From NCBI GenBank assembly GCA_964534795.1, contig CAZHQK010000180.1:4395-68394 (forward strand): 64,000 nt of DNA, read 5' to 3'. Shown piece by piece: positions 16,268 through 48,499 of the stretch. The notes beneath the pieces were generated by a model that saw only the letters and a program-made list of their open reading frames with translations, searched no databases and was not told where the DNA came from. The stretch's first letter is position 1. Every line of letters begins with the position of its first letter. This DNA is from an uncultured Acidobacteriota bacterium (GTDB taxonomy: Bacteria > Acidobacteriota > UBA6911). The position numbers were made by a program, and so were the translations under genes.

Positions 16268-16414
16268 TCAGCAATCATCTCTCAGGCATCGCGCTCCCTT
16301 CCCTTCAGGAAGCCCGATTGCCGAAAGCTGAGCGTGAAGGCTGCAGCGACGACGATCATGCTCCACCCTTGTCGACTTCTTGCCCGAAACAGGCAAGAGT
16401 TCACCGCCAAGGGA
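16268..16414. repeat. intergenic repeat element, copy 1 (dsrC 3' end to dsrT start)
   Basis: About 65-70% identical, with small indels, to 48346..48499. Shared blocks are cagcaatca, gaaagctgag, atcatgctcca(c/t)ccttg(t/c)cgac, ccgaaacag(g/a)caa and gttcaccgcca(a/t)gg. It contains the hairpin CTTGCC-cgaaaca-GGCAAG. Confidence 0.6.
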
Positions 16415-16732
16415 CTAGACGCAACCGGTAGGTTTGGGCAGTCCGGCAAGCTTGCACGCGCCCTTGGCGGGCCCGGAAGGAAAGAGTTCGTAGATCTTGT
16501 TGAGCTTGAAGCCGGTCTCCTTGCACAGTTTGCGGATCATGGGAGCGATGCCGAACTCGAGGTAGTAATTGCGCAGGTAGTGGATCACCTTCCAGTGCTC
16601 CTCGGTCAGCTCCGTGACTCCCTCGGTGGTGGCGAAATCCTTCGCGACCTCCTCGTTCCACAGCGACGGATCCTGCAGGAAACCGTCTTCATCCACTTCG
16701 TAGCTTCGTCCATGAACTGTAAATGTAGGCAT
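16415..16732 (-). CDS. dsrC: DsrC (TusE/DsrC/DsvC family) with both conserved C-terminal cysteines
   Basis: 105 aa ending ...CKLAGLPKPTGCV, the diagnostic DsrC C-terminal arm with two Cys spaced by 10 residues. Confidence 0.95.
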   Translation of the reverse strand: MPTFTVHGRSYEVDEDGFLQDPSLWNEEVAKDFATTEGVTELTEEHWKVIHYLRNYYLEFGIAPMIRKLCKETGFKLNKIYELFPSGPAKGACKLAGLPKPTGCV

Positions 16733-16793
16733 GATAGCTGTTCTCCTCTTTCAGTTGGAATGCCCTCGCGTCGCTGCAGGAGCCGCCCGGCCT

Positions 16794-16828
16794 GCCGGCA
16801 CGGCCCCGACGGCCGGCGCCGTGCCGGC
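16794..16828 (-). other. GC-rich stem-loop between dsrD and dsrC, with no U-tract
   Basis: gccggcacggc ... gccgtgccggc forms an 11-bp stem. It is followed by the dsrC RBS AAAGAGGAGAA. It looks like an mRNA processing or stability element rather than a terminator. Confidence 0.4.
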
Positions 16829-16864
16829 ACCCGCTATGCTGCAGCCCCGTATTCCCCGACCCCT

Positions 16865-17113
16865 CTATTCGGGTGCCGCTCCTTCCTTATGCGGCAGGGT
16901 GATGTAGCTGCCGCCGAAGTAGCTGTAAACGCAGCGACCGGAATCGATGAGGCTGCGGATGGCAAGCTTGCAGTCGTCCTTGGTGCAATTCTCCTCTCCG
17001 AACTTGGCGATCATGGCCTTGGTCAGATCGCCTGCTTTGAGGTTCTTCTTGCCGAGGCATTCGACCACCATCTTGTACATCTCCTCGGCAAGATCTTCGA
17101 TGCTCACGCCCAT
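16865..17113 (-). CDS. dsrD: DsrD (small winged-helix protein of reductive dsr operons)
   Basis: 82 aa, immediately downstream of dsrB. The C-terminal ..GRCVYSYFGGSYITLP resembles the DsrD YWSSGSTTMYGL wing. Confidence 0.8.
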   Translation of the reverse strand: MGVSIEDLAEEMYKMVVECLGKKNLKAGDLTKAMIAKFGEENCTKDDCKLAIRSLIDSGRCVYSYFGGSYITLPHKEGAAPE

Positions 17114-17122
17114 GGTCGCCTC

Positions 17123-18205
17123 CTAGTACTTGATATGCATGGAGCGGGCATAGGTCAATCCCGCGTGCTTGAAATCGTCGATATGATAGCGGGTGAACGG
17201 AATGCCCGTCAGCTGGAAAAAGCGCGGCCAGCCGATGCGCTCGATCCACTCGCCCATGCGCTCGTGCTTGCGGGCGTGCGCGGCGTAAACCTTGACGAGG
17301 TTGACGACCGCCTCGACCACCTCCGGCCAATGGGGCGGATTGTTGGGTATGAAGGGGATCGCCAGTTTCGAGAACTTGGGGGCGCTGCGCGCGTTGCTGA
17401 CCTTGCCCCCGACCCAGATCGACAGCCCGTCGTTGTCGGGATCGTTCAAAGGCATGGCGGGGCATACGGTGTAGCAGTTGGCGCAGAACATGCACTGCGC
17501 CTCCACCACTTCGACGGTCTGCTTGCCGTCGACGGTCTTGGGGCGGATGGCCCCCGTCGGGCATGAGGCGATCAAAGTCGGGATCTCGCAGACCTTGGGC
17601 AGCAGTTCGTGCTGCACCTTGGGCAGCCTGCGGTGCACCCCGAGGATCGCGATGTCGGAGCAGTGGACGGCACCGCACATGTTCAGGCAGCAGGCGAGGG
17701 CGATGCGCAGCTTGGCCGGCAGCTTTTCCTCGGTGAACTGGTCGCACAGGGCATCCATGACGCTCTTGACGATTCCCGAGGCGTCGGTGGCCGAGGAGTG
17801 GCAGTGGATCCAGCCCTGGGTATGCACGATATTGCTGATGGCATTGTTCGTGCCCCCCACCGGGAAGCCCGCGGCCTGGAGTTCCTTCTTCAAGGGCTCG
17901 ATATTCTCTTTCTTGTCCAGCAGGAACTCGACGTTGTTCCGGCTGGTGAAGCGGAGATATCCGCCGCAGTATTTGTCGGCCAGGTCGGCAAAGAACCGCA
18001 TGGTATGGACGCTGAGCAGACGGGGCGATCCCGCGCGGACGCTGTAGATGCGGTCTCCCGACTCGGCGACATGGCACAGGACCCCGGGGGCCACCGACTC
18101 GTGATACTTCCACTGGCCGTAATTCTTCTTGATGATGGGATGAAGGAACTTCTCGTAATGCGGAGGCCCGATATCGGTGATTCTCTTAGCAGGTTGCGTC
18201 GACAT
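17123..18205 (-). CDS. dsrB: dissimilatory sulfite reductase beta subunit
   Basis: 360 aa with the sirohaem/Fe-S Cys motifs ([23 protein letters not shown]) and a ferredoxin insert (CPTGAIRP...[12 protein letters not shown]). Confidence 0.95.
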
Positions 18206-18261
18206 GATATGAACTCCTGATCTTCAGGTTGATGGCGTTGCCGAACGATGATTGTCCGGCC

Positions 18262-19449
18262 CTAGTCTTCATCCTGCTGGAAGAAGATGTAAGGATTGTC
18301 TCTCGGGGCGCTGATCATTTCCGGCTGCGGGTCGAGACCGATGGCGTCGAGGAAATTCGCCATCCCCACCCGCTGGATCAGCTCTCCGATCCTCTCGCGA
18401 TTCATGCCGTGCTCGTCCCAGAACTCCCACACGCGGGAGATGAGCTCCTTCAGGGTCTCCAGCAGTTCCTCCTCCGGCACGAAGGGAATGATGACGGAGG
18501 AAAGCAATGCGCCCTGAACGATCGGCGCCTTGGCCCCGATCAAGACCACGGCGCCTCTTTCCGTGCCCGGGCGCAGGGCCTTGGGCATGAGGTTGATGCA
18601 GTGCATGCAGTGCACGCATTCCCGATTGTCGATCGTGAGCTTTTTGCCGTCCCATTCCATGCACTTGGAGGGGCACAGGTCGCACACCTCCTTCTGGATG
18701 CTCATGGCGGCGGCATACTCGCGCACGGCGTCGTCGTCCTGCCGGATGTCGTCCTTCCATGTGCCGATGACGGAGAGGTCGGCACGCGCGATCGATGCCA
18801 CGCAATCGTTCGGGCACCCGGAGAACTTGAACTTGAACTTGTACGGGAAGGGCGGGCGGTGGAGTTCGTCCTGGTAGGTCTGGGTGATGTCGTAGCAGAC
18901 CTTCAGGGTGTCGTAGCACGCCCACTCGCAACGCGCGGGGCCGACGCAGGCGGACGGCGTGCGCATGCAGGATCCCGAACCGCCCAGATCGAAACCGGCT
19001 TCGGTCAGTTCCTTGAAGCAGGGCTCGAGCTCTTCGGTCTTGGTGCCGAGAAAGATGATATCGCCCGTGGATCCGTGCATGTTGGTCAGGCCGGAGCCGT
19101 GACGCTCCCAGATGCCGGCCAAGGTGCGCAGCGCCTCGCTGGTATAGAACCATCCCGCCGGATGGTTGATGCGCATGGTATGGAAATGGGCCACGTTCGG
19201 GAATTTCTCCGGCACGTCGCTGTAGCGCCCGATGACGCCGCCGCCGTAACCGAGAACGCCCACGATACCGCCGTGTTTCCAGTGCCCGATCTTCTCCTCG
19301 TATGAAAGCTCCAGCTGCCCGAGGAGATCCTGGGTGACGGGATTGGTCGCGGCCGCCTTCTTCATCTCGCGGACGAAGCTCGGCCACGGTCCCGTCTCGA
19401 GCTTGTCGAGAAGCTCGGTCTTGGACTTCTTTTCATCAGCCATTATCAT
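18262..19449 (-). CDS. dsrA: dissimilatory sulfite reductase alpha subunit
   Basis: 395 aa with [31 protein letters not shown] and [14 protein letters not shown], plus the ferredoxin domain CPSKCM...CVHCMHCIN. It is of reductive type, given the linked dsrD. Confidence 0.95.
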
Positions 19450-19556
19450 CTCCTATATGATTTCGGCTTTACGCCTTGGTTGGATGCAACATCGAACATG
19501 CCGCACTCCGGCCGGCCGGCGGCTGCTGTTTCCCCCGCCTGCGCGCGGGCCAGGGT

Positions 19557-20387
19557 TCACACCGAGTCCCTTCTTTCCTGCCGCGCGGCCGCCGCGCGCC
19601 TTCTTTCCTCCATCACGGCCTTCTTGATCTTCATGGTCTTCTCGCCCAGAAGGCTGAAGCGCAGCCACTGCATGGCCAGCTCCAGCAGATCCTGGTCGTC
19701 CTGGCGCGCCGCCTCGATCCTGGTCTCATCGATCTCGAAGAGCTCGAGGAATCGGGTCTCGAAGACGAACCGGCGAAAGCGGTCCAGGTCGTAGCAAGCC
19801 ATGAAGTACATGTCCATCTGCTGCGGGCCGAGCGGTTCCTCCTTGTCCCAATGCTCATGGAGCATCAGTTCCTTGAACGATGCACCCATCATCTCGTATT
19901 GCTCGATTCCCTGCCGCTGCAGCCACTCGCGGATCGTCGATCCTCCGCCGCGCCCGTGGCCGTGGCACAAATCCTCCCGCAGCATGAAGAAGAAGCGCCT
20001 TTCGTCCGCGTTCGGGTTCTGCGGCTCGGCCATGCCGAGCGGATACATGCGGCACGACCACGGGCGGTGCGCGTAGACGGAACATCCCTCTGCGGTCACG
20101 AACGGGCAGCGTTTGGTCTCCGGGTCCATGCGGATGAGCACCGCAGGGATCTTCTGCTCCGGAGAAAAGGGCGACAGCGTGTATTTCTGCAGGAACTCCG
20201 TCGAATCGATGCCCAGGCAGCGTTTCAGGCGGAGCACGTCGTACGGCGTGAGCACGATGGACACGTCGCGGCAGCATTCATTGAAGCACTCGAGGCCCTT
20301 CTCGCAGGAGAACACGATGCGGTCCTCGAGCCCCAGCCGCGGGTATTCCCGCAGTATCTTTTCCTGGATTGCGCCGCGCTCAGTCAT
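19557..20387 (-). CDS. YkgJ/UPF0153-family putative Zn/Fe-chelating protein (CxxCxxCC)
   Basis: 276 aa with an N-terminal CFNECCRD motif and further Cys ([19 protein letters not shown]). It is co-oriented between aprA and dsrA. Confidence 0.6.
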
Positions 20388-20664
20388 CTCCCTCGCCTTC
20401 GTCGGCCATGATGCCGCTCTTGAGGGCGTCCTTGGACCAGACCGGCAGGGGCCCCATTTCCCCGGTGGTGGGGTCGAGCCTGAGCCTGTAGGAAGCCGTC
20501 ACCTGGAAATGCTCCAGCATCCAGCGCCAGCCGCGCACGAAATAGCCGCACTGGTCGTTGAAGCAGACGTACTGATACTCCCCGCTCCAGCTGCTCAGCT
20601 GGGGGTTGGCCCACCGCACCATGGGCCGCCCGCAGTGGGGGCAAATCGGCGGCGCAGCGGCCAT
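20380..20664 (-). CDS. small zinc-ribbon protein (94 aa)
   Basis: Two CxxC/CxxxxC pairs ([15 protein letters not shown]), an acidic tail and a GGAGG RBS. It overlaps the ykgJ-like start by 8 nt. Confidence 0.45.
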
Positions 20665-20681
20665 GGATCAACCTCCGGAAT

Positions 20682-20707
20682 GCGGCCCCCGCCGAAGCGG
20701 GGGCCGC
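20682..20707 (-). other. perfect 11-bp GC stem-loop immediately 3' of aprA
   Basis: gcggcccccgc cgaa gcgggggccgc, a tetraloop hairpin with no U-run. It is followed by GGAGG plus the ATG of the zinc-ribbon gene. Confidence 0.45.
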
Positions 20708-20727
20708 CGCTCCAGTGGAACCGGACA

Positions 20728-22662
20728 CTAGCCTCCCAGGAGCTCGTGCTCCTTGGGCTGCGCGAACACATAGCGTACCGGCCGCGCAAAGACCTCCCAC
20801 TGGTCGGTCTTGGGATCGTACTTGCAGTTGGCGAACACGCGCCACTTTTCCTCGTCGAGCTTCGGGCGATCGGCGCGGAAGTAATAGCCCGGCCAGCGCG
20901 TCTCCTCGCGGAAGAGCATGGTCCGGACATGGGCTTCCGCCTGCCACATGCGATGCACGTTCTCCCAGCAACGCATGAGCTCGTGCAGGTTGGCGGCCGC
21001 CAGCTTGGTCGAATCCTCCTTGAGGAGGGCGATCAATTCGAGAGCCCTCTTCAGGAGCGCCTCGTTGGTGGTGAACTGCGCGCTGATGCCGCCCGCGTAC
21101 TCATCCATGATCTTCTGCAGGCGGAACATGAACATGCGCGGCTTGATGTAGTTGGGATTGATCTCGGGATCGGTGGTCTCGCCCATGTGCTTCTGGTAGG
21201 TCTCCAGAGGCTGCAGGATCTCGACCATCTTGCGATTGATGGTCTCGTCGTCCACCTTGGGCATCGTGTTGTTCTCCACGATGAATTTGATGGCCGACTT
21301 GGCCGCGATCCGGCCCTCGGTGCACGAGCCCGAGGAGAACTTGTGGCTCGAGGCCCCCGAGGCGTCGCCCGCGCAGAAGAGCCCCTTGACCGTGGCCATG
21401 TTGGCATAGCCCCAGAAGTACTCGCCGCGGGTCTCGTCGCTCTGCAAATCCTCGGGACCGCTCACCCAGGCGCCGCTGGCTCCCGAGTGCGATCCGATGA
21501 AGTACGGCTCGGCCGCAGCGATCTCGGAACTCTTCACCTCGGGCTCCACGTTGGTGGCCGCCCACAGGATGGCCTGGGAGATGGTCATGTCAAGAAAGTC
21601 TTCCCAAGCCTCGGACTCGAGTTCCTTCATCTTTTTCTTGTAGGCCTTGGGGTCGTCCTTGTAGGCATCGGCGATGGCCTGGATGGCTTCCTCGGTTCTC
21701 ATGTAGATGGGCCCCTTGCCCTCCATGATATCGAGCATGCCCAGGTAATTGCGCAGGTTGGCGGGGATCGGCTTCACCCGGCCGTAAGGCCCCCACTTCT
21801 CGAGCTCGGCCTTGCGCTCCACCATGTAATCGCCGCCCTGCGAGTTGGTGGCCCGGGACTTGAAGAGCAGGAACCACGCACCCACCGGCCCGTAGGCATC
21901 CTTGAAGCGCACGGGAATGAAACGCACTTCCTGGCAGGTCATCTCGGCACCCGCCTGGATGGTGAAATAGGCCGAAGAACCGGAATTCCAGGGTGGATAC
22001 CACGCGCGGCCCACGCCCTCGCCCGAGCTCCTCGGCTTGAAGACGTGCACGGCACCGCCCATGGCCACCAGGGTGGCCTTCGCCTTGAAGACGTAAAACT
22101 TGTTTTCGCGCACCGAAAAGCCCACGGCCCCGGCGCAGCGATCGCCGTCCATGAGCGGACCGACGATGAAGACGCGCTCGAAGATCTGCCCGACGCCGGA
22201 CTGGAGCAGGGCGTTCTTGGCCGCCTCGGCCACGACGACCTTGTACGACTCGCCGTTGATCATCAGCTGCCAGCGGCCCTCGTGGACGTAAGCGCCGTTC
22301 TCGTCTTTCCAGATGGGGAGTCCCCATTTTTCGAATAGATGAACGGTCGAATCGACGTGACGGGCGATGTTGGCCACCAGGTCCTCGCGCGTGATGCCCA
22401 TCAGGTCGTTGCGCACGTAGTCGACATAGTCCTTTACCGTGTTCGTGCCGTCGCACAGGCCGACGTACTGGTTGATGGCCGAGAGGCCCATCGCCACGGC
22501 TCCGGAACGGTCGACCGCCGCCTTGTCGACCAGGGTCACCTTCAGGCCGTTCTGCTTGGCCCAATACGCCGCCTCGACCGCGGCGCCGCAGGCGGCCATG
22601 CCGCCGCCCAGAATCAACAGATCAGTTTCCACCACGACTTTTTCGAAATCGGCCATGTTCAT
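20728..22662 (-). CDS. aprA: adenylylsulfate (APS) reductase alpha subunit
   Basis: 644 aa with an FAD-binding N-terminus (LILGGGMAACGAAVEAAYW) and AprA-specific blocks (YFTIQAGAEMT, WGYANMATVKGLFCAGDASGAS). Confidence 0.95.
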   Translation of the reverse strand: MNMADFEKVVVETDLLILGGGMAACGAAVEAAYWAKQNGLKVTLVDKAAVDRSGAVAMGLSAINQYVGLCDGTNTVKDYVDYVRNDLMGITREDLVANIARHVDSTVHLFEKWGLPIWKDENGAYVHEGRWQLMINGESYKVVVAEAAKNALLQSGVGQIFERVFIVGPLMDGDRCAGAVGFSVRENKFYVFKAKATLVAMGGAVHVFKPRSSGEGVGRAWYPPWNSGSSAYFTIQAGAEMTCQEVRFIPVRFKDAYGPVGAWFLLFKSRATNSQGGDYMVERKAELEKWGPYGRVKPIPANLRNYLGMLDIMEGKGPIYMRTEEAIQAIADAYKDDPKAYKKKMKELESEAWEDFLDMTISQAILWAATNVEPEVKSSEIAAAEPYFIGSHSGASGAWVSGPEDLQSDETRGEYFWGYANMATVKGLFCAGDASGASSHKFSSGSCTEGRIAAKSAIKFIVENNTMPKVDDETINRKMVEILQPLETYQKHMGETTDPEINPNYIKPRMFMFRLQKIMDEYAGGISAQFTTNEALLKRALELIALLKEDSTKLAAANLHELMRCWENVHRMWQAEAHVRTMLFREETRWPGYYFRADRPKLDEEKWRVFANCKYDPKTDQWEVFARPVRYVFAQPKEHELLGG

Positions 22663-22669
22663 CCCTCCT

Positions 22670-23116
22670 CTACTCGCACGACTTCAATGTGAACAATTTG
22701 TTCAAGCGGTTGGACGCCGGCTCGGTGAAGAGGTTGGGGCTGTTCAGATCGCCGACCGTCGGGAACCCGCCATCCGGCACCGCCTGTCCCTCGGGGGTCG
22801 TGCGGATGGGGAACTTGAAGCGCTTCAGTGTACCGTTGCGGAATTTCACGGTCCACATGATCGAATCGGTTGAACGCAGGGGCGTAACGGATGCCCCCAT
22901 CGGGACGAAGTCGGCGTAGCCGCGGATCTCGATGGCCTGGGTAGGGCAGATCTTCACGCAGTTGAAGCACTCCCAGCACATCATGACGTCGCGGTTGTAC
23001 GCCTTCATCTTCTCCCGGTCCAGGACCATGAGGTCGTTGGGGCAAATGTACTGGCAAGCGGTCTTGTCCAGCGCCTTGCACCCATCGCATTTTTCGATAT
23101 TGACGTAACTCGGCAT
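22670..23116 (-). CDS. aprB: APS reductase beta subunit (2x[4Fe-4S])
   Basis: 148 aa, MPSYVNIEKCDGCKALDKTACQYICPNDLM...CWECFNCVKICPTQAI. This is the classic AprB. Confidence 0.95.
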   Translation of the reverse strand: MPSYVNIEKCDGCKALDKTACQYICPNDLMVLDREKMKAYNRDVMMCWECFNCVKICPTQAIEIRGYADFVPMGASVTPLRSTDSIMWTVKFRNGTLKRFKFPIRTTPEGQAVPDGGFPTVGDLNSPNLFTEPASNRLNKLFTLKSCE

Positions 23117-23133
23117 GACGCTACCTTTCTGGT

Positions 23134-23739: not shown

Positions 23740-24081
23740 TGAACTTCCTCCATCCCTAAAGCGGGATGAAATCCGGACCCAGACCAACGGCTGGCGTCCG
23801 TCGTTTAACCCTGTCGAATTTAAACTCGATTTAGTCCTCATGCAAGAGTTTTTTTCGAAAATATGGCCAGATCTGGCAGGAAATTATTGTCAAAAGATAT
23901 TAAATCAGCACAAGCACCCGGCCATTTCGGCGATTTGAAAAAGATCGGCGACGCCGAACAGCCGACGGCAGGAAAGACTTCCCATGGCTGGGCCGCGACC
24001 CTCGATCCGGGATCGGAAGTCTCATTTGGCTCACTCTGAGACCGATTTGCCCTGCATTGCTCGGCGATAGGCCGCGTTTGC

Positions 24082-24150
24082 TGCAAAAAAAAATTTAAAT
24101 ATGATGACAAGCCGGTCAATTGCGTTTATTATTAACCGCCGAAAGGATCC
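24082..24150 (+). promoter_or_regulatory. conserved 69-nt upstream element, copy 1 (qmoABC leader)
   Basis: Ungapped 48/69 identity to 36638..36706. The core GCGTTTATTATTAACCG(C/G)CGAAA(G/A)GATCC matches at 27/29. GATGACAA is shared 14 nt upstream. A GC hairpin (cccgcc-tgaaggtcc-ggcggg) follows directly. Confidence 0.55.
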
Positions 24151-24608
24151 CGCCTGAAGGTCCGGCGGGAACCTGTGAGCAGGACTGGTTCCTGAAGTGC
24201 TCCGGCCCGGGTCGAGTCGGAGAGCGGAGGCAGCGAGGTCATCATCATCGATTCGGCAAGCTATGAAAACGGCCCGTGATCGCCATCATCGCATTACCCG
24301 TCATGGCGGACCCCGCGACACATCCCCTCGACTCCTCCCCCGTCGGCCCGGGGCAGCGCTGCGGCCTGTTCCTGCGATAGAGAAAGGCAGGTGTACGACG
24401 CTCGCCCCGAGCTCGGAGCCGCGGCGCTCCGGGCTCGTCGCGCGATGACAGGCGCAGGCACCGGCTGAGCCGGCCGACGTGCCCGGCAACCCGGTCTCGA
24501 GGCTACCGACGCCTTCGCATCGGGCCGGCGGCCGGACGCTCCCGCCGGGCGCGAGACAAGCCGGGGCCGAAGCCATCGACCAGAAGTCATATTCGCGAGA
24601 GACACAAT

Positions 24609-25868
24609 ATGAATGCCAAAGCAAAACCCATTCTAGTAATCGGCGGGGGCATAGCCGGGATGACGGCGGCGGTCGAAGCCGCCGAGGTAGGGTATCCCGT
24701 CGTCCTCGTGGAAAAGGAAGCGTATCTGGGAGGACGCGTAATGCGCACCTACCGCTACTTCCCGAAGATGTGTCCCCCGACCTGCGGCTTCGAAATCAAC
24801 GTGCGCCGGATCCGGCAGAATCCCAGAATCACGGTCCACACGCTTGCGACCGTGGAGGAGATCACCGGCCGCGCGGGTGCTTTCCGCGCCAGAATCAGGA
24901 AGCGCCCCCGATACGTGACCGGCCGGGAACCGCTGAGCGATTCCCTGGCGCAACAGCTGACCTCCGAGCGTCCCGACGACTTCAACCTGGGCATGGGCCG
25001 GACCAAGGCACTCTATCTGCCGCACGCAATGGCCTACCCGCCGCAGTATGTGCTGGACCGGGACGCCCTCTCCGCAGCCGACGCCGAAATCCTCAGGAAA
25101 AACGCCGCCGGGGCCGTCGATCTCGACATGGCCGAAGAGGAGCTGCTGGTCGAGGCGGGCACCGTCATCATCGCCACCGGATGGCGCCCGTATGACGCCG
25201 CCAAGCTCGACCATCTGGGCTTCGGAAAATGCCGCAACGTCATCACCAATGTCATGATGGAACGGCTGGCGGCGCCCGGCGGGCCGACGGGCGGAGAGAT
25301 CCTGCGGCCCTCCGACGGCAGGAAAGCGGAGAACGTGGCCTTCGTCCAATGCGCCGGTTCGCGCGACGAGAACCATCTTCCCTACTGCTCGGCCGTCTGC
25401 TGCATGGCTTCGCTCAAGCAGGCCAGGTACCTGAGGGAAAAGAACGCGAACGCCAAGGCGACCATCTTCTACATCGATATCCGCGCCGTGGGCCGCCTCG
25501 AGAAGTTTTATTACGACATGCTCGAGGATGCCAACGTCACCTATGTCAAGGGAAAGGTGGCCGGAATCAGCGAAGAACCCGGAAGCGGCAACCTGATCCT
25601 GGACGTGGAGGACACGCTGGCCGGCAGAAAGCAGCATCGCGGATTCGATCTTGCGGTCCTGGCGACCGGCATGGTGCCCAATACCGCCGATGCCGGCCTG
25701 CCCCTGCAGCTCCAATGCGACGACTACGGTTTCATCGACGGCACCACGGACATCGAGGGCGTGTATGCGGCCGGCTGTGTCAAGCGCCCGTGCGACGTTG
25801 CGCGTACGACCAAGGACGCCACCGCGGCTGCGTTGAAGGCCATCCAGTGCCTTCAGAGGGGAGAATGA
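24609..25868 (+). CDS. qmoA: QmoA (HdrA-like FAD flavoprotein)
   Basis: 419 aa with an FAD Rossmann start (ILVIGGGIAGMTAAVEAAE) and the HdrA-like Cys cluster (CAGSRDENHLPYCSAVCC). Confidence 0.9.
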   Translation: MNAKAKPILVIGGGIAGMTAAVEAAEVGYPVVLVEKEAYLGGRVMRTYRYFPKMCPPTCGFEINVRRIRQNPRITVHTLATVEEITGRAGAFRARIRKRPRYVTGREPLSDSLAQQLTSERPDDFNLGMGRTKALYLPHAMAYPPQYVLDRDALSAADAEILRKNAAGAVDLDMAEEELLVEAGTVIIATGWRPYDAAKLDHLGFGKCRNVITNVMMERLAAPGGPTGGEILRPSDGRKAENVAFVQCAGSRDENHLPYCSAVCCMASLKQARYLREKNANAKATIFYIDIRAVGRLEKFYYDMLEDANVTYVKGKVAGISEEPGSGNLILDVEDTLAGRKQHRGFDLAVLATGMVPNTADAGLPLQLQCDDYGFIDGTTDIEGVYAAGCVKRPCDVARTTKDATAAALKAIQCLQRGE

Positions 25869-25872
25869 ACCG

Positions 25873-28146
25873 ATGAAAGACAAGATCGGCGTCTTTATCT
25901 GCACGGGATACGGGATCGCGGAAGCGCTCGATATCGAAGCGCTGCGCAAGGTGGTCACCTCGGAATGCAAGGTGCCCTTCTGCAAGACGGTGGATTCCTG
26001 TGAGGGGCCCGCCCTGCAAGGGATCATCGAGGATATTGCCAGGGAAGGCCTGGCCAAGGTCGTCATTGCCGGGATTTCGCCGCGCCGCTACCCGGACGTC
26101 GCTTTCCCCGAGGGCGTCGTCGTCGAAAGGTTTGCGCTCCTCGAACACGTGGTATGGACGCAACCGGCGCGCGACGAGGATACGCAGATGATGGCGGAGG
26201 ACTACCTGCGCATGTACGTCACCAAGGTGCGCGAGATGGAACCTCCCCAGCCCTTCAAGCCGGAAGAAACCCTCGACAAGAGCATCCTGGTGGTCGGAGG
26301 CGGGATCACCGGGATGACCGCGGCGCTCGAAGGCGCCCGGGCCGGGTACCGCGTGCGCCTGGTCGAGAAGAGCGACCGCCTGGGAGGCTGGCTCGCCCGG
26401 CAGCACAAGTCGGTGCCCACCAAGCCGCCTTACAGAGAACTGGAGCCGACGGGGGTCGAGGATCTCATCAAGAAGGTCGAGAGCGACCCGCACATCACCG
26501 TCTACAAGTCGGCCGCCACCGGCCGCATCGCGGGCGCCCCCGGACTTTTCGACGTGACCCTGCATTCGACCGGCAACGGCCGCCCCGCCGGGGAAGTCGT
26601 CGATACCTTCCGCGTGGGGGCGATCATCCAGGCGACCGGCTGGAGACCGGCGGAACTCCGAGATACCCTGCCCTACGGCCGGCTGCCCGACGTCATCCGC
26701 AACGTCGAGCTGGAAGAAATGGTGCGCAGCCAAGGGCGCATCATCCGCCCTTCGGACGGCAGGGAGGTCAAGAGCATCGCCTTCATCCAGTGCGGCGGAT
26801 CGCGGCGCAAGGAACACCATTCCTACTGTTCTTCGATCTGCTGTCTGACCTCGCTCAAGCAGGCCCTCTACCTGCGCGAGCGGCAGAGCGACGGCAAGGC
26901 TTACATCTTCTACGAATTCATCCGGACGCCGGGGCACTACGAAGATTTCTACCGCCGGGTGCAGCAGGATCCCGGCGTGTTCCTCACCAAGGGTGAGGTG
27001 ACCGACGTGACCCGCGAGTCGGACGGCTCGTTGCTGGTCACGGCCCAGGACACCATGCTGGGCGAGCGGATCCAGGTCCGGGTCGACCTGGTCGTGCTCG
27101 CGGCCGGGATGGTGCCGAATTCGGCCGACGGCGAGGCTATCCGGGCGCTGCACGACGCCCAGGCTACGGCGACGCGCGGCGAATCGGAGGTGCAGCGCAA
27201 GGAGGCCGCCGAAAAGGCCGAACGGCTCAAGCACCACGAGGGCACGGAGATACTCAACCTGGTCTACCGCCAGGGACCCGACCTGCCGATCCTGCAGTAC
27301 GGCTTTCCCGACTCCCATTTCATCTGCTTCCCCTATGAGAGCCGGCGCACGGGAATCTATCCCGCGGGCAGCGTACGCCAGCCCATGGACGGAGTCGGCG
27401 CCCGCGAGGACGCGGCCGGTGCCGCCTTGAAGGCAATCCAGTGCGTGGAGATGACCGCCAGGGGCGAAGCGGTCCACCCGCGCGCGGGCGACAAATCCTA
27501 CCCTGAATTCTTCCTCCAGCGCTGCACCCAGTGCAAGCGCTGCACCGAGGAATGCCCCTTCGGCGTGCTCAACGAGGACGTCAAGGGCACCCCCCTGCTC
27601 CAGGCCACCCGCTGCCGGCGCTGCGGCGTCTGCATGGGGGCCTGCCCCGAGCGCATCGTGTCCTTCAAGGACTATTCGGTGCATATCATCGCCGAGATGA
27701 TCAAGGCGGTGGAGGTTCCGGACGAAGCCGAGGAAAAGCCGAGAGTCCTGGCCCTGCTGTGCGAAAACGACGCCATCCCCGCCCTGGACCTCGTGGGTCT
27801 GCACCGCCTCCATTACAACCCGTTCGTGCGCGTCGTCCCGGTGCGCTGCCTGGGCTCGGTCAACGCCGTCTGGGTCTCCGAGGCGATTTCGGCCGGCTAC
27901 GACGGCGTGCTGCTGGTGGGCTGCAAATACGGCGACGATTACCAGTGCCACTTCATCAAGGGGAGCGAGCTGGCGTTCACCCGCGGCGGGAACATCCGGG
28001 AAAAGCTCAAGCAGATGTCCATGGAGAACGAGAGGGTCGAACTCCACCAGCTACAGATCAACGAGTATGACAAGCTGCCGATGATTTTCGACAACTTCAT
28101 GAAAGTCATCGAAAAGTTCGGCATGAATCCATTCAAGGGCATGTGA
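25873..28146 (+). CDS. qmoB: QmoB (HdrA-like flavoprotein with ferredoxin and MvhD-like C-terminal domains)
   Basis: 757 aa with FAD motifs, the HdrA Cys cluster, 2x CxxCxxCxxxCP and an MvhD-like tail. Confidence 0.9.
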   Translation: MKDKIGVFICTGYGIAEALDIEALRKVVTSECKVPFCKTVDSCEGPALQGIIEDIAREGLAKVVIAGISPRRYPDVAFPEGVVVERFALLEHVVWTQPARDEDTQMMAEDYLRMYVTKVREMEPPQPFKPEETLDKSILVVGGGITGMTAALEGARAGYRVRLVEKSDRLGGWLARQHKSVPTKPPYRELEPTGVEDLIKKVESDPHITVYKSAATGRIAGAPGLFDVTLHSTGNGRPAGEVVDTFRVGAIIQATGWRPAELRDTLPYGRLPDVIRNVELEEMVRSQGRIIRPSDGREVKSIAFIQCGGSRRKEHHSYCSSICCLTSLKQALYLRERQSDGKAYIFYEFIRTPGHYEDFYRRVQQDPGVFLTKGEVTDVTRESDGSLLVTAQDTMLGERIQVRVDLVVLAAGMVPNSADGEAIRALHDAQATATRGESEVQRKEAAEKAERLKHHEGTEILNLVYRQGPDLPILQYGFPDSHFICFPYESRRTGIYPAGSVRQPMDGVGAREDAAGAALKAIQCVEMTARGEAVHPRAGDKSYPEFFLQRCTQCKRCTEECPFGVLNEDVKGTPLLQATRCRRCGVCMGACPERIVSFKDYSVHIIAEMIKAVEVPDEAEEKPRVLALLCENDAIPALDLVGLHRLHYNPFVRVVPVRCLGSVNAVWVSEAISAGYDGVLLVGCKYGDDYQCHFIKGSELAFTRGGNIREKLKQMSMENERVELHQLQINEYDKLPMIFDNFMKVIEKFGMNPFKGM

Positions 28147-29469: not shown

Positions 29470-29486
29470 CCCCGAAGGAGAAAACC

Positions 29487-40800: not shown

Positions 40801-40886
40801 GCGGCGGGCTTTTTTGCCGTGACCTCGCGGCGCCCGTCGTGGACAATAGACCGGGTTTCGGAGCCCGAACGCGAAGGAGGGGATCC

Positions 40887-41606: not shown

Positions 41607-41756
41607 GCGTTCGGGCCGGGCCGATTCCTCGTGCCGATGCCCGCGCCGCCTTGCAGCCCGCTGCCGGCTGTCGTATAAGATCGGACGCACCCCATGATCG
41701 CCTGCCCGGGCCGCAGGCAACAGCGCGCACGCGGCGCGGGAAGAACAGGAGGAATC

Positions 41757-43112
41757 ATGGACGCGATCACGCTGGCGCGCGTGCAGTTCGCGCTCACGGT
41801 AGGCTTTCATTACATTTTCCCGCCTCTTTCCATCGGACTCGGCCTGATTCTGGTCGTCACCGAAGCCTTCTACCTCAAGACCGGCAGGCCGATGTACCGC
41901 GACCTGACCCGCTTCTGGGCGCGGATCTTCGGCCTCATCTTCGCCATGGGCGTGGCCACCGGCATCGTCATGGAGTTCCAGTTCGGTACCAACTGGGCCG
42001 CTTACTCCCGCTTCGTGGGGGACGTCTTCGGGAGCGCGCTGGCTGCGGAGGGCGTGTTTGCGTTCTTCCTGGAATCGGGCTTCCTTGCCATCATGCTGTT
42101 CGGCTGGGATCGGGTGAGCCCGAAGGTCCATTTTCTCTCCACGGTCATGGTATTCCTGGGCTCCGTGTTCAGCGCCGTCTGGATCGTGGTGGCCAATAGC
42201 TGGCAGCAGACGCCCGCCGGGTACCGCCTCGTCGAAAGCGCCGGCTCTCTGCGGGCGGAAATCACCTCGTTTTGGGACGTGGTGTTCAATCCCTCATCCC
42301 TGGATCGCCTGAGCCACGTGTTGGTCGGTGCTTTCCAGGCCGGAGCCTTCCTGGCGATGAGCGTGGCGGCATACTATCTCCTCAAGAAACGCCATGAAGA
42401 ACCGGCAAAGTTCGCCCTCAAGGTCGGTCTGATCGTGGCCGCAGCGGCCTCGCTGCTGCAGCTCGTCTCCGGACATGCCAGCGCTGTGGGCGTCGCCCGG
42501 AACCAGCCCGCCAAACTTGCCGCTTTCGAGGGCCACTTCGAGGCATCCGCGCCGGCGCCTCAGTACCTGTTCGGCTGGGTGGACGAGCGCGAGCAACGCG
42601 TGCGCGCGTCGATCGCGATCCCCGGCCTGTTGAGCCTGCTCGTCACCGGGGATTCCCGGAAGCCGGTGACGGGCCTGAATGCTTTTGCGCCGGAGGACCG
42701 GCCGCCGGTCAACCCCGTCTTTCAGTCCTACCATCTGATGGTGGGGATCGGTTTCGCGCTCATTGCTCTCAGCCTGGTCGGCCTGCTATTGTGGGCGCGG
42801 GGCACCCTCTTCGAAAGCCGCCGGCTGCTGTGGCTCTATGTTTTTGCGGTCGCGCTGCCCCAGGCGGCCAACCAGCTCGGGTGGTTTTCGGCCGAGGTGG
42901 GACGCCAGCCCTGGATCGTCTACGGGCTGCTGCGGACAAAAGACGGGGTCTCCCGGGTGGTAAGCGCAGGCCAGGCGTTGAGCTCGCTGATCCTTTTCGT
43001 CCTCGTTTATGCGCTGCTATTCGCCCTCTTCATCTACCTCCTGGATCGGAAGATTCGGCAGGGGCCGGCCGAAGAGGGCATGGAGCTGTCGTTCAAAGGA
43101 CCACGCGCATGA
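41757..43112 (+). CDS. cydA: cytochrome bd ubiquinol oxidase subunit I
   Basis: [29 protein letters not shown]..., with a Q-loop and a GRQPW motif. An ACAGGAGGAA RBS is present. Confidence 0.9.
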
Positions 43113-44131
43113 TCGCCGATCTGAATGTCGTCTGGTTCGTCCTGATAGGCGTGCTTTTTATCGGTTATGCCGTCCTCGACGGTTTCGATCTCGGGGTGGG
43201 AGCGCTCCACCTGCTGGCCAGGACCGACGAGCAAAGGCGCCTGATGCTCAACTCCATCGGCCCGGTCTGGGACGGCAACGAGGTCTGGCTGGTGACGGGC
43301 GGAGGAGCTCTTTTCGCCGCCTTCCCTCATGTGTACGCGACGGTATTCTCCGGCTTCTACACGGCATTCATGCTGCTGCTGCTCATGCTGATTTTCCGGG
43401 CCGTGGCGATCGAGTTCCGCAGCCGGCAGCCGATGCTCTGGTGGCGCCGCACGTGGGATGTCAGTTTCAGTATGGCCAGCATCGGATCGAGTCTTCTGCT
43501 GGGGGTGGCTCTCGGAAACATCGCCTGGGGCGTACCCCTCGGCCCCGACCACGAATTCGCTGGCAGATTCATGGATCTCCTGAACCCGTATGCGCTGCTG
43601 GTCGGCATCACCACGCTCGCCCTCTTCACCATGCACGGCGCCATCTACCTGGCCCTGAAGACAGAAGGCGAGATGCACGAACGGGCGCACGCGTGGGCGC
43701 GCAACGCGATCATCGGCTTCACCATGCTCTATGTCACGACCACGATGGCGACGCTGCTTTACGTTCCGCACATGACCGACACGGTCCGCGAGCACCCGCT
43801 GCTGTTCGGCCTGGCGCTTTTGAACATGCTCGCGATCGCCAACATCCCCAGGGAGATCCATCACGGCCGGGATTGGCGCGCCTTCCTTTCCTCGGCGGCC
43901 GCCATCGCGGCCCTCATCACCCTTTTCGGCGTGGGCATGTTCCCCGAGCTGGTCAGCGCCTCGAACGATCCGGCCAACAGCCTGACGATATACAACGCCG
44001 CCTCCTCTCCCAAGACGCTCGGGATCATGCTGATCATCGCCCTCATCGGCATGCCGCTCGTGCTCGCCTACACGGCCGGTATCCATTGGGTATTCCGCGG
44101 GAAAGTGCGCCTCGACCGCTTCAGCTATTGA
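43109..44131 (+). CDS. cydB: cytochrome bd oxidase subunit II
   Basis: ATGA overlap with cydA. The protein begins [31 protein letters not shown]... and is a hydrophobic 340-aa protein. Confidence 0.85.
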
Positions 44132-44170
44132 ACGGCGCGCGCGGCGCACGGAGGGCGGCGCCCGCAACGC

Positions 44171-45355
44171 TCACCGCATGCCGCGGCCCGGCACGGACGC
44201 GCTTGCCGGGGCGTGCGCGGTGGAGACCTCGACGATAGGCACCTGCTCGACTACCGTGATCCCGTAACCTTGCAGGCCGACGATTTTCTTGGGCTGGCTG
44301 GTGAGCAGGCGGATTCTGCGCACTCCGAGCGCGCGCAGGATCTGCGCCCCGATGCCGTAGATCCTGAGGTCCGAGCCGGCGCCTTGGGCGCTCTTCTTTT
44401 CCGCGCACGGCGCATCCGCAGTCTCCCGGCCGCAGGAACGTATCTCGTTGGCAATCCCGATTCCGCGGCCCTCCTGGCGCAGGTAAACCAGGATGCCCGT
44501 GCCGGCCTCGTCGATGGCTTTCAGGGCCGCCTCCAGGCGGCGCCAGCTGGGGCTGTGGTGCGCGCGGAACACGTCGCCGAGCGTCGATTGCGTCTGGACC
44601 CGCACGAGCACGGTTTCCTCCGGGTCGATCTCGCCCCGGATCAGGGCCAGGTGATGCTCGTGATCCAGGGAGTTCTCGAACACCGCAGCGCGGAAATGGC
44701 CGTACCCGGTCCGCAGCTCCGCTTCGGCGACCTTGTGGACGAAGGTTTCGGTGCGCAGCCGGAAAGCGATGATGTCGGCCACGGTCACCATTTTGAGGTC
44801 GTGGGCGCGCGCCAGCTCCTCCAGCTCCGGGCGGCGGGCCATCGTGCCGTCGTCCTTCATGACCTCGCAGATCACGCCCGCCGGATGGAGGCCGGCAAGC
44901 CGGGCCAGGTCCACGGCGGCCTCGGTCTGGCCGGTGCGCTCCAGCACGCCGCCCGGCCGCGCGCGCAGCGGGAAGACATGGCCGGGGCGGACCAGATCCG
45001 AGGGTTGCGCCTGCGGATTGACCGCGGCGAGAATCGTGGTCGCCCGGTCGGCGGCGGAAATGCCCGTGGTCACCCCGTAGCGCGCGTCGATCGAGACGGT
45101 GAAGGCCGTGCCGAATTTGCTCGTGTTCTCCTCGACCATCATGGGAAGCCGGAGCTGCTCGACGCGCTCCGGAGTCAATGCCAGGCAGATCAATCCGCGC
45201 CCGTACTTCGCCATGAAGTTGATGATCTCGGGCGTGACCTTTTCGGCGGCCACCGTGAGGTCGCCTTCGTTCTCCCGATCCTCGTCGTCGAGGACGATGA
45301 CCACCCTGCCCTCGCGGATCTCCGCGACGGCCTCTTCGACACTGCAAAAACTCAC
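44171..45355 (-). CDS. ribBA: bifunctional 3,4-dihydroxy-2-butanone-4-phosphate synthase / GTP cyclohydrolase II
   Basis: GTG at 45353-45355 with AGGAGAGAGG 6 nt upstream. The DHBP domain runs [15 protein letters not shown], and GCH2 has the Cys triad and RGYGITV-like blocks. Confidence 0.9.
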
Positions 45356-45518
45356 GACCTCTCTCCTCTCTGTCGATCGTCGGCGCGAGCAGAATAGATT
45401 ACCCATGCAATCGTGTCAATGGGCGCCGCCCGCAGCCGAACCTGCCGCAAGCGCCTCCGGCCGGCCTCCCGGCGGCGCTTCTTGCCCGCGCCGCAACCGC
45501 TGGTATATTTATCGCGCT

Positions 45519-46250
45519 ATGATACGAGCGACCGCCGTGTACCTGTTCGTCGCCATCTATGTGCTCCTGCTCGGACCCGTGGGCCTGATCTGGACCGCGC
45601 TCTCGCGCGACCCCGGGTTCAGCTACCGCCTGGCGCGTTGCTGCATCCGTGCCGCCGGCTGGATGGGCGGCATTCGCGTGCGCGTGCGCGGCCGCGAGAA
45701 GGTTCCGGCGGACCGCAACTGTCTCTTCCTCTCGAACCACCAGGGAAACCTGGACGGCCCCATACTCTTTTATGCCACGGGCCGCGACGTCCGGGCACTG
45801 GTCAAGCAGGAGATGATGCGCATCCCGCTGTTGTCGGCGGTTTTGCGGCAGGTGCACTTCGTGCCGATCGACCGGCGCGACCCGGTGCGGGCGCGCGCCG
45901 CCATCGACCGTGCGGCCGAACGGCTGCGCGGCGGCCTTCCCTTCATCGCCTTTCCCGAGGGTACGCGCAGCCGCGACGGCAGGCTCGGGCCCTTCAAGAA
46001 GGGCGTGTTCGTCATGGCCATCCGGGCGCAGGTTCCCGTGGTTCCGGTGACCATCAACCACAGCCGCGCCGTCCAGCCTCCGGGCTCCTACGCGATCAGG
46101 CCCGGGGTCGTAGACCTCCTGTTCCACGACCCCATTCCGACGGAGGGTATGACGGAGGCGGATCGGGACGAGCTGGCGCAGCGGACGCGCGCCGCCATAG
46201 CCTCGGCGCTCAGCGAGCCTGCGGCGGATTCTCGAGCTTGCGCCCCTTGA
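45519..46250 (+). CDS. plsC: 1-acyl-sn-glycerol-3-phosphate acyltransferase
   Basis: NHQGNLD (HxxxxD) and FPEGTRS motifs, with an N-terminal TM segment. Confidence 0.75.
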
Positions 46251-46857
46251 TCCAGCGCAGGGTGTTCGCCTTGTCCGTGGTGATGCTCACCAGCGATTGC
46301 ACGAAGCCGCGCACGGCCAGCTTCACCAAGAGGGGATTGTCCGGGGCGTCCAGAAACCAGCGCTCGCAGCCCCGATCGTCGACCGTCCTGACCACCGGCA
46401 GGTCCACCGGCGAGCGGTTGACCTGCACGCTGATGCGCTCGGCGCCCGTAACCGTCACCCAGCCGGGAATCGAATCCAGGGATACCTTCACTTTGCCGCG
46501 GCTTTTCAGCTCCCGGAAAAGCCGCTCGCTGAGCCACAGGATGGTTGCATTCTTCCCCGTCGTGTCCGATCCGCCCTGGAAGAGGCTGCCGTGCACGAAG
46601 ACCTTCGCCTCGCGCACGGCCTTCGCAGGCATGTAGACCGTGCCCTGCGTCGTGCGGTTCTCCCACTCGATGTAGCGGTCGGGCAGAAACCTGGCGATGC
46701 GCACGACGAGCTCGCTGTTCTCTTCCTGATGCCGGCTTTCCCATACCAGGACCGTATCCCGGCCGAACCTGGGGAGTGCATCCTCGGAAAAGCCGTGCGC
46801 CATGGCCACTCGAAGGGCCAGGAAAGCAGCGAAACCGATATGAGCCAGGGCGGTCAT
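46210..46857 (-). CDS. hypothetical secreted protein
   Basis: ATG at 46855-46857 with a GGAGGAGGG RBS and a signal peptide ([22 protein letters not shown]). I recognise no domain. Confidence 0.4.
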
Positions 46858-46861
46858 CGTA

Positions 46862-47509
46862 TCAGGAACCCTCCTCCCACAGCGATTCCATGAGCGGCCG
46901 CACCGGCCTGCCGCCCGCAAGCCCGAGCTGGAAAAAGCGCTCGAAGTACTTTGCCAGCAGGTCCGCTTCCAGGTTCACCGGATCGCCGACCCTCATATGC
47001 TGCAGGTTCGTCCCTTTCCAGGTGTAGGGTATCACCGCCACCCGGAAAGACCGCCGCCCGAGTGCGGCGACCGTAAGGCTGATGCCATCCACTGCGATCG
47101 ACCCCTTGGGAACCAGATATCGCTCGAGCTCGTGCGGGAAGGAGAATTCCATGACACCTCCCCCTCCGCTCGGCGCCGATGACACCAGGGCCCCCATGCC
47201 GTCGACGTGACCCTGGACGATGTGCCCGCCGAAGCGTGCTCCCGCGAGAAGCGCCCTTTCCAAATTCACGTACGTCCCCTCCCGGGCCAGCCCCAGGCTG
47301 CTGCGCGCCAGAGTCTCGCCCGAAAGATCGCACGAAAAGAGCTCTCCCCGTCGCCCGGTCACCGTCAGGCATACGCCGTTGACCGCCACCGAATCCCCCG
47401 GGTTCAGGGCGGGCGCAAGCTGCGGGGCGCTGATCTCGAGAACCGCCCCCTGCCGCTCCCTGCGCAGAGAACGGACGCGGCCGATTTCTTCTATGATCCC
47501 CGTAAACAA
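46862..47509 (-). CDS. ribE: riboflavin synthase (alpha subunit)
   Basis: TTG start with a GGGAGG RBS gives MFTGIIEEIG..., the canonical riboflavin synthase N-terminus. Both lumazine-binding repeats are present. Confidence 0.8.
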   Translation of the reverse strand: MFTGIIEEIGRVRSLRRERQGAVLEISAPQLAPALNPGDSVAVNGVCLTVTGRRGELFSCDLSGETLARSSLGLAREGTYVNLERALLAGARFGGHIVQGHVDGMGALVSSAPSGGGGVMEFSFPHELERYLVPKGSIAVDGISLTVAALGRRSFRVAVIPYTWKGTNLQHMRVGDPVNLEADLLAKYFERFFQLGLAGGRPVRPLMESLWEEGS

Positions 47510-47510
47510 C

Positions 47511-48332
47511 TCAGCCTCCCTGCGGATCCGGCGCGTCGCCGGCTGCAGGCTCACGGTGCCGCTCGCCCCGGTCGGCGCGCCCGCGGCGCTCTCCGCCCTG
47601 TGGAGCCTTCCGCCTCGACAGCCGGTAGATCTCGGCGACTTCTTCCGGGCTCAGCGGCCGATAGCTGCCCGGCGCCAGCCCCCGGTCGGTCAAGAACCCG
47701 ATCCGCTTCCGGCGCAGCTTGACCACCGGATGGCCGACGGCCTCGAACATCCTGCGAATCTCCCGGTTCTTGCCCTCGGTCAACGTCACTTCGAGCCAGG
47801 TGTTGGCCCCGCCGCGCAGTAGCTTCAGGCGGGCCGCCGCCGCCTGCGTGCCGTCGGCCAGGCGCACACCCGCGCGCACGCGCTCCAGGTCATGTCCGTC
47901 CGGCACACCCCGCACCTTGACATGATAGACGCGCGGGAAGCGTTCGCCCCCGTCACCCACGATCCTGGCGAGTTCGCCGTCGTTGGTGAGCAGAATCAGA
48001 CCCTCGCTCTGGCAATCCAGGCGCCCGACGTGAAAGATTCTGCCCCCGGCCCTGACCAGGTCCCGGACCGTCGTGCGGCCGCGCGGGTCGCTCACGGCGG
48101 AAATCACCCCCCTGGGCTTGTTCAGCAGCAGGTATACCTTGGGCCCCGGCGGCCGGATGCGGCGGCCGTCGACCTTGATGTGATCCCGCTCGGGATCGGC
48201 CTTCACGCCCAGTTCCGTCACCACCCGGCCGTTGAGCGAGACGCGTCCCTGCCGGATATACGACTCGCACTTGCGCCTCGATGCGATGCCGGCGGCAGCC
48301 AGTATTTTCTGCAGACGTTCGGTTGGCGCCAT
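47511..48332 (-). CDS. rluB: rRNA pseudouridine synthase (RluB/RsuA family) with an S4 domain
   Basis: An N-terminal S4 domain (RLQKILAAAGIASRRKCESYIRQGRVSLNG), the catalytic GRLDxxSEGLLLLTNDG, and a basic C-terminal tail. Confidence 0.8.
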   Translation of the reverse strand: MAPTERLQKILAAAGIASRRKCESYIRQGRVSLNGRVVTELGVKADPERDHIKVDGRRIRPPGPKVYLLLNKPRGVISAVSDPRGRTTVRDLVRAGGRIFHVGRLDCQSEGLILLTNDGELARIVGDGGERFPRVYHVKVRGVPDGHDLERVRAGVRLADGTQAAAARLKLLRGGANTWLEVTLTEGKNREIRRMFEAVGHPVVKLRRKRIGFLTDRGLAPGSYRPLSPEEVAEIYRLSRRKAPQGGERRGRADRGERHREPAAGDAPDPQGG

Positions 48333-48345
48333 AACAGCTTTCAGC

Positions 48346-48499
48346 GGTCAGCGTTCAGCAATCAGCTTTCGCCGACATGAGGGCGGAGGCCGGCAGCCGA
48401 TGACGGAAAGCTGAGAGCCGAGAGCTCCAAGCAGCAGCCATCATGCTCCATCCTTGCCGACGTCCCGGCCGAAACAGACAAATGTTCACCGCCATGGAT
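48346..48499. repeat. intergenic repeat element, copy 2 (scpB 3' end to rluB start)
   Basis: See 16268..16414. In both copies the six-frame track even produces an ORF starting MLHPCR..RNRQ.FTA from this element. Confidence 0.6.

Follow-up and report, generated by a model that had tools for sequence, protein, structure and literature searches.

A probable small insertion element directly behind the stop codons of dsrC and scpB in an uncultured member of the Acidobacteriota

The window analysed here is the whole 64,000-nucleotide (nt) stretch of contig CAZHQK010000180.1, from an uncultured Acidobacteriota bacterium, and it carries a sulfate-reduction island with sat, aprBA, qmoAB and dsrABDCTMKJOP. 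Two operon junctions in this window, dsrC-dsrT and scpB-rluB, hold related intergenic sequences, and both copies of this element share the minus strand with the genes beside them, dsrC/dsrT and scpB/rluB, for which it is the sense strand. Relatives carry the same junctions without the element; these are called empty sites below, and loci from relatives are denoted by L numbers. The genes, the two copies and their predicted hairpin domains are located as follows:

15526-16179, minus strand: dsrT
16177-16190, minus strand: pre-existing dsrT ribosome-binding site GGGAGA (16190-16185) and GTG start codon (16179-16177); the same sequence follows the TAG in empty sites
16414-16191, minus strand: full dsrC-side insertion, 224-225 nt, from comparison with the empty sites L017, L027 and L028/L031
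16191-16238, minus strand: domain 3, the 3' terminal hairpin (z=-2.4)
16264-16347, minus strand: domain 2, a long imperfect central hairpin with inner CUUCC/GGAAG (-41.9 kcal/mol, z=-3.1)
16353-16376, minus strand: most conserved block, GTCGACAAGGGTGGAGCATGATCG, in the dsrC copy; near-invariant in all four lineages
16366-16413, minus strand: domain 1, a 5' bulged hairpin of 48 nt starting 1 nt after the stop codon (-23 kcal/mol, z=-3.6)
16415-16417, minus strand: dsrC stop codon TAG, abutting the 5' end of the element
16415-16732, minus strand: dsrC
47511-48332, minus strand: rluB
48330-48338, minus strand: 6-nt spacer GCTGTT (TCTGTC in the empty site L039), probably ancestral, and the rluB ATG
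48335-48370, no strand assigned: tandem array of the 14-nt unit CAGCTTTCAGCAAT, 2.6 units, with a 7-nt sub-period (sense strand GCTGAnn), in the 3' arm and tail of the scpB copy
48339-48499, minus strand: scpB-side copy, about 161 nt, comprising domain 1 in decayed form, the conserved block and domain 2, with domain 3 missing, from comparison with the empty sites L032-34, L036-38 and L039
48341-48421, minus strand: domain 2 of the scpB copy, an inverted repeat forming the long hairpin UCAGCUUUC...GAAAGCUGA (-38.9 kcal/mol, z=-2.7)
48438-48461, minus strand: conserved block GTCGGCAAGGATGGAGCATGATGG in the scpB copy
48451-48498, minus strand: remnant of domain 1 in the scpB copy, structure no longer significant (z=-0.7)
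48500-48502, minus strand: scpB stop codon TAG (as GTAG), abutting the element; TAA in the closest empty sites
48500-49039, minus strand: scpB

The relatedness of the two copies is well supported. Aligned with MAFFT, they have 77% column identity over about 150 nt and share a 63-nt ungapped stretch that is 81% identical, and the 22-mer ATCATGCTCCAYCCTTGYCGAC is present twice, with an expectation of 0.00 in shuffles. With the dsrC copy as query against the window, BLASTN retrieved the scpB copy at E=1.9e-12, and nhmmer matched the two at 6.3e-12 over positions 3-152. The duplication on one strand behind dsrC and scpB that a first-pass annotation of this DNA had described thus stands under statistical alignment, and every shared block it listed is present in both copies. 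Its estimate of about 150 nt proved too short, as the insertion covers 224-225 nt at dsrC (the boundary is uncertain by 1 nt, owing to a G common to the TAG/GGGAGA junction) and about 161 nt at scpB. The 3' 75 nt of the dsrC copy are missing from the scpB copy and present in a third copy, L026, found in a JGI metagenome in sense orientation between a bamA-like gene and skp. A full-length copy thus measures about 225 nt; the one at scpB has lost its 3' end and is decaying. The annotation had also let the dsrC copy end at a dsrT start codon, ATG 16278, which is a longest-ORF (open reading frame) artefact located inside the inserted element. The true start of dsrT is the GTG at 16179, as in all relatives, and gene calls give 215-218 amino acids. 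The region 16177-16278 is an annotation trap, since an automatic start at ATG 16278 could add 33 spurious residues.

The comparison of filled and empty sites carries most of the argument. The same loci were obtained from independent JGI, ENA and Logan assemblies by exact-protein look-up, and filled sites occur in these independent assemblies; the element is therefore no assembly artefact. The dsrC site is filled in strains 94-100% identical to the window. It is empty, with the junction GTCTAG/GGAGAnnGCnGTGAAAGTC, in L017 and L027 (DsrT 79-81% identical to that of the window) and in the outgroup L028-31 (57%), where the TAG, the ribosome-binding site and the dsrT GTG start all fall within 10 nt. 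The insertion sits exactly between the stop codon and this pre-existing GGGAGA/GTG (16190-16177). At the other locus, empty scpB-rluB junctions were found in L032-34, L035, L036-38 and L039. Relatives with 83-91% identical ScpB have only 5-6 nt from the stop codon to the rluB ATG (24 nt in one relative), and their junctions read CTTTAA CCCGCG ATG, CTTTAA TCTGTC ATG or TTGTAG GAATT ATG. The window has about 161 inserted nt here (48499-48339), followed by the apparent old spacer GCTGTT. Because relatives are empty at both loci, both copies are derived insertions into operon junctions formerly of 5-10 nt, placed directly 3' of a TAG stop codon.

Neither insertion duplicated its target. At dsrC the empty TAG/GGAGA corresponds to the filled TAG/TCCC...GGGTC/GGGAGA, and the filled and empty scpB sites likewise differ without any duplication of the flank. 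Furthermore, in neither window copy do the two termini form an inverted repeat, and the best end-to-end similarity found by eye is about 11/20, partly contributed by the flank. Since target-site duplications and convincing terminal inverted repeats are both missing, the element is not a classical miniature inverted-repeat transposable element (MITE).

Three hairpin domains are predicted for the full-length copy, with structure z-scores from -2.4 to -4.0 for the folded segments. Domain 1 comprises an outer stem CCCUUG/CAAGGG, an enclosing CGGU/GUCG and an inner hairpin UCUUGCC-UGUUUCG-GGCAAGA; its architecture is also found in L026 (z=-2.8) and L022 (z=-1.6), and its outer stem shows a compensatory C-G to U-A change. 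The core of the inner hairpin, CTTGCC-cgaaaca-GGCAAG, was already noted at first pass and lies at 16379-16397 in the dsrC copy, while in the scpB copy it is degenerate. Domain 2 was recovered by nhmmer as a reverse-strand self-match; its CUUCC/GGAAG pairing becomes CCUCC/GGAGG, with a G.U intermediate in L012, and L016 has a perfect 14-bp stem there. The 3' strand of domain 3, CCGGGUC, forms the last 7 nt of the insertion; the domain is absent from the scpB copy, and its closing stem is kept in L026 with a G-C to A-U change. The single-stranded block GUCGACAAGGNUGGAGCAUGAUCG is near-invariant across lineages. No inverted doublet of domain 1 was found in the window. An alternative long-range helix, GGCGGUG/CCGCCGG, which RNAalifold proposed for the close dsrC orthologues, was discarded as it is not kept in L026.

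The predicted folding depends on the strand: in 8/9 variants the fold of the sense strand gains 10-24 kcal/mol over that of the antisense strand, and many of its pairs are G.U. In an alignment of seven sequences, 92% of the cells are paired. The covariance across copies that had been proposed as a check is partly borne out: six pairs changed on both sides, compared with 2.8±1.2 in shuffles, a value reached in 5/500 of them, whereas the overall covariation term of RNAalifold came out at +1.4, slightly unfavourable. Taken over three or four independent lineages, the evidence for a conserved structure is modest.

At least four lineages of the element can be told apart. L022 is an orthologous scpB copy. 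In L024 (1337-1415), the scpB coding sequence is 96.3% identical to that of the window, but between the two elements behind this TAG identity drops to 73%, and the L024 element matches none of the other known copies better; this disparity between flank and element therefore points either to an independent insertion at the scpB site or to conversion from a copy that was not sampled. Divergence between orthologous copies proceeds at about the rate of third codon positions, faster at scpB, which suggests that the element drifts at about the neutral rate, one block excepted. The full-length L026 may be longer on its 5' side than aligned. In that contig (1985-2325), the conserved ATG opens an ORF that continues into skp without a change of frame, about 105 nt separate the aligned 5' end from a GTAG upstream of it, and the region is bracketed by a 16-nt, 75% inverted repeat (CCCGGAC.../...GTCCGGG).

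Copies are few wherever we searched. Neither nhmmer with --max nor a covariance model run without filters found any beyond the two in the 64-kb window, and there were none in the 4.4 kb that precede the window or the 7.4 kb that follow it in the same genome. The relatives' loci that were fetched held no extra copies. Exact matches to the pattern ATCATGCTCCA-N28-40-GTTCACCGCC in 185,579 GTDB species representatives, among which the source genome is not included, gave no real hit; nine single matches in diverse phyla were judged to be chance and unrelated (nhmmer E>1). An exact scan of JGI metagenome contigs with GTCGRCAASGRTGRAGCATGAT, a collection that also lacks the source genome, returned one true copy, L026, together with a chance match that falls within a hydrolase gene (L025). 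Scans of phages, plasmids and viral contigs gave no match.

These observations place the element in the known class of small non-autonomous intergenic insertion elements, as an unnamed and rare family. We favour, with moderate confidence, a new element of this class resembling either repetitive extragenic palindromes (REPs) and the mosaic elements built from them (BIMEs) or derivatives of the IS200/IS605 insertion sequences (ISs), moved by an enzyme whose existence we infer. The earlier suggestion of a dispersed REP- or MITE-like element is upheld in its broader sense by the empty sites, the third locus and the second lineage at scpB, and fails only for the classical MITE. An HUH/Y1 transposase of the IS200/IS605-RAYT type (RAYT, REP-associated tyrosine transposase) would act in trans and move the element in single-stranded form, recognising the terminal hairpins and (G/C)TAG as tag or target. 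Such single-strand transposition would account for copies that abut a stop codon, lack a duplication and share one orientation. Insertion precisely after TAG without duplication or terminal inverted repeats, hairpins at the ends, one orientation and strand-specific structure may be read together as hallmarks of single-strand HUH/Y1 activity. The IS200/IS605 family has a lagging-strand-template bias, and the sense strand of the element, being the G-rich one, weakly fits it. Once inserted, the element would be co-transcribed with the operon, where its hairpins would be tolerated and, as a side effect, may make the upstream message more stable or release the downstream gene from translational coupling. 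Effects on expression, namely message stabilisation, lost translational coupling and interference of a hairpin 1 nt from the stop codon with termination, are speculation; the last effect is reported for REPs of E. coli (Liang et al. 2015).

The element has features in common with REPs, BIMEs and REPINs. These are intergenic, lie mostly just 3' of genes and are co-transcribed; they are imperfect palindromes with G.T pairs and leave no target duplication; at one end they have an unpaired (G/C)TAG, which can double as stop codon for the neighbouring ORF (PMC3733652); and BIMEs, like the present element, are mosaics of several hairpins. GTAG-tagged REPs often provide the TAG stop codon of the flanking ORF, their G.T pairs are suggestive of an RNA role, and a distinct group of RAYT-like transposases exists in Acidobacteria (PMC3733652). 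On the other hand, the element is a composite of 160-225 nt with three unlike hairpin domains instead of a 20-40 nt unit, its tag at dsrC is CTAG, it is apparently present in very few copies, neither the roughly 76 kb nor the relatives' loci yielded a RAYT gene, and its most conserved block is single-stranded and outside any palindrome. Palindrome-associated transposable elements (PATEs), which derive from IS200/IS605, resemble it in having neither terminal inverted repeats nor target-site duplication, in their hairpins at or near both ends (found in the dsrC copy and L026, whereas the scpB copy is without the 3' hairpin), in apparent insertion immediately 3' of a short specific sequence, which in PATEs is a fixed target of 4-5 nt, and in a single orientation on the G-rich strand. 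They differ in that the target TAG is here inferred from two loci, the two terminal hairpins are dissimilar, no parent IS with matching ends is known, no autonomous parent carrying tnpA, with or without tnpB, occurs in the sequence examined, and no Rfam family of IS605-associated RNA or omega-RNA matches. The classical bacterial MITEs that are transcribed as part of operons (Correia/NEMIS, ERIC/IRU, RUP and BOX) share a length of 100-250 nt, a non-coding and intergenic nature, long RNA hairpins and presence/absence polymorphism between strains, but have terminal inverted repeats and target-site duplications (TA for Correia), and the element has neither. An integron attC site was also discarded by inspection, as GGTGAAC does not conform to RYYYAAC and there is no GTTRRRY at the 3' end; in addition, the flanking genes are core operon genes and not cassettes.

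It is important to consider what weighs against a mobile element. REPs and MITEs usually reach tens to hundreds of copies per genome, whereas two were counted in about 76 kb of this one, none in the GTDB representatives and a single one in the JGI contigs. Gene tables and Pfam scans of the window and of every locus fetched showed no transposase gene and no Y1_Tnp domain. Domain 1 is not maintained in L024 or in the scpB copy of the window, and the RNAalifold term given above is unfavourable. The evidence on the tag is mixed. The closest empty scpB sites end in TAA and all filled ones in GTAG, which fits an element carrying its own tag; yet L036 is an empty scpB site with TAG, and the tag is not uniformly GTAG, since it reads so at scpB in the window, L022 and L024 but is CTAG at dsrC. 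In L026, whose boundary is not fixed, the sequence before the aligned start is TTGG. At the two loci whose boundaries are known, and in each of the two scpB lineages, the element does come right after a TAG, but so small a number of sites could also be shaped by selection. If insertions elsewhere in such short spacers are selected against, this could explain the abutment to the stop codon at the two boundary-known sites, and in a 10-nt spacer selection alone could force an insertion ahead of the ribosome-binding site.

A functional cis-acting RNA module or small RNA, such as an intercistronic stabiliser, a processing site or an insulator between dsrC and dsrTMKJOP, copied because it is useful and with its sense-strand structure under selection, is the alternative that survives best, and we regard it as possible but unlikely. 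It would account for the strand-specific structure rich in G.U pairs, the compensatory and wobble-mediated changes, the orientation of all known copies with their flanking genes, the 24-nt block that is near-invariant in four lineages, and a domain 1 that begins 1 nt after the stop codon. In work attributed to Liang, Rudd and Deutscher (2015), Escherichia coli REP hairpins within about 15 nt of a stop codon reportedly affect the translation of the upstream gene. However, the downstream genes dsrT, rluB and skp are functionally unrelated, close relatives function without the element, orthologous copies drift at or above the synonymous rate, and domain 1 is decayed in two copies. The element also belongs to no Rfam family, has no consensus promoter and contains one weak terminator-like site only. 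The search of Rfam over the whole window gave no match at the gathering score; at E<=10, the two copies matched only chance fragments of long non-coding RNAs, without any match to Acido-1, Acido-Lenti-1, IS605-orfB RNAs or ribozymes, and ARAGORN found no tRNA or tmRNA. A small RNA in particular, one of the first-pass suggestions, is on these predictions no more than a possibility, given the missing Rfam match and the weak terminator-like site on one side and the sense-strand-specific structure on the other.

Less likely still, in our estimate, is that an intergenic segment was copied between loci without dedicated mobility machinery, by gene conversion or by a rare event of illegitimate or microhomology-mediated recombination. 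The low copy number fits it, L024 could be a conversion from an unsampled copy, and short direct repeats bracket the dsrC insertion: GGCGGTGAA (sense strand) at 16400-16408 and 16175-16183, and the 15-mer GGTTGCGnnnnnTCC at 16412-16426 and 16196-16210. These 9-mer and 15-mer repeats could reflect microhomology or chance; they were ruled out as a target-site duplication, as the empty sites are without the duplicated unit, and they do not resemble a duplication of empty-site sequence. Unguided recombination would also have to account for two or three separate insertions, each exactly at a TAG, for clean insertions with conserved terminal hairpins, and for a 5' end common to every site, with a 3' end shared by the dsrC copy and L026.

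The same abutment to TAG could be given a bolder reading, to which we assign a small probability: a mobile module that seeks stop codons, targeting or supplying (G/C)TAG at coupled junctions by an undescribed chemistry or guide, with GUCGACAAGGNUGGAGCAUGAUCG and the terminal hairpins as signals, and that, once in place, would rewire the ratio of dsrC to dsrTMKJOP expression in sulfate-reducing Acidobacteriota. If true, such a module would colonise translationally coupled junctions without damage to either gene.

That the element is a portable cassette, acting as a promoter to drive the downstream genes or as a terminator to set them apart, is highly improbable. The element does lie just upstream of those genes, and the terminator scan gave a single weak terminator-like site at 16233-16215; but this site belongs to domain 3, which is absent from the scpB copy, and no U-tract follows the hairpins. 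There is no sigma-70-like promoter on either strand of either copy. Candidate promoters of the sigma-54 type and of the extracytoplasmic function (ECF) type (GAAC...GTC) were rejected, as their by-eye spacings vary between the copies, from 18 to 22 nt; the portable promoter proposed at first pass is thus not supported.

Hardly credible, finally, is a small protein of about 25-30 amino acids read from the conserved GGAG-N-ATG: the block GTCGACAAGGGTGGAGCATGATCG does resemble a ribosome-binding site with a start codon, L011, L012, L016, L022 and the scpB copy of the window each have an open ORF of 29-30 codons that ends GAT TGC TGA, and L011 and L016 differ over the first 15 codons by four synonymous and no non-synonymous changes, but the ORF behind the block is not conserved, a 1-nt deletion frameshifts the window dsrC copy relative to its 96% identical relatives, L026 has no stop codon before skp, the common CTCAGCTTTC block falls in one frame in copies of the dsrC type and in another in those of the scpB type, L022 and the scpB copy of the window differ by non-synonymous changes only (6/6), gene callers never call an ORF here, and a peptide search with the upstream 55-amino-acid ORF of the dsrC copy, in frame with the conserved ATG, found no word-sharing candidate and no homologue among 5.8 billion proteins. 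The upstream ORF is interrupted by a TGA in L016. By its sequence, then, the element is non-coding, and the early remark that indels shift the reading frame and that conservation is at the nucleotide level holds.

With a non-autonomous insertion element as the favoured reading, the findings would add a small element family from the Acidobacteriota, a phylum whose mobile-element repertoire is poorly described. The filled and empty alleles in a core sulfate-reduction operon are a natural experiment on the coupling of dsrC and dsrTMKJOP, which in filled strains are separated by a 224-nt structured spacer. If the abutment to TAG reflects targeting, the REP/RAYT pattern of GTAG as stop codon would extend to a larger composite element; otherwise, the element would be ordinary selfish DNA.

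The tandem array at 48335-48370, in the tail of the scpB copy, suggests local slippage after insertion. As for the host, the nearest named relatives of ScpB, DsrB and DsrT are from Acidobacteriota metagenome-assembled genomes (Bryobacteraceae, 'Acidoferrum'). The dissimilatory sulfate-reduction island is complete and spans 10594-38092, in an Acidobacteriota background of 65% GC. It contains dsrMKJOP, dsrT, dsrC, dsrD, dsrBA and two small Zn-finger/CxxCxxCC genes, and then aprAB, a MarR-like gene, qmoA, qmoB, a further Fe-S/NrfD complex and sat. Within qmoA and qmoB, a 140-nt direct repeat of 71% identity (25299-25438 and 26740-26879) is most likely an ordinary reflection of paralogous FAD-binding domains. 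Between the MarR-like/aprBA unit and qmoA lies a divergent intergenic region of 767 nt (23842-24608), in which relatives have a 58-amino-acid ORF called.

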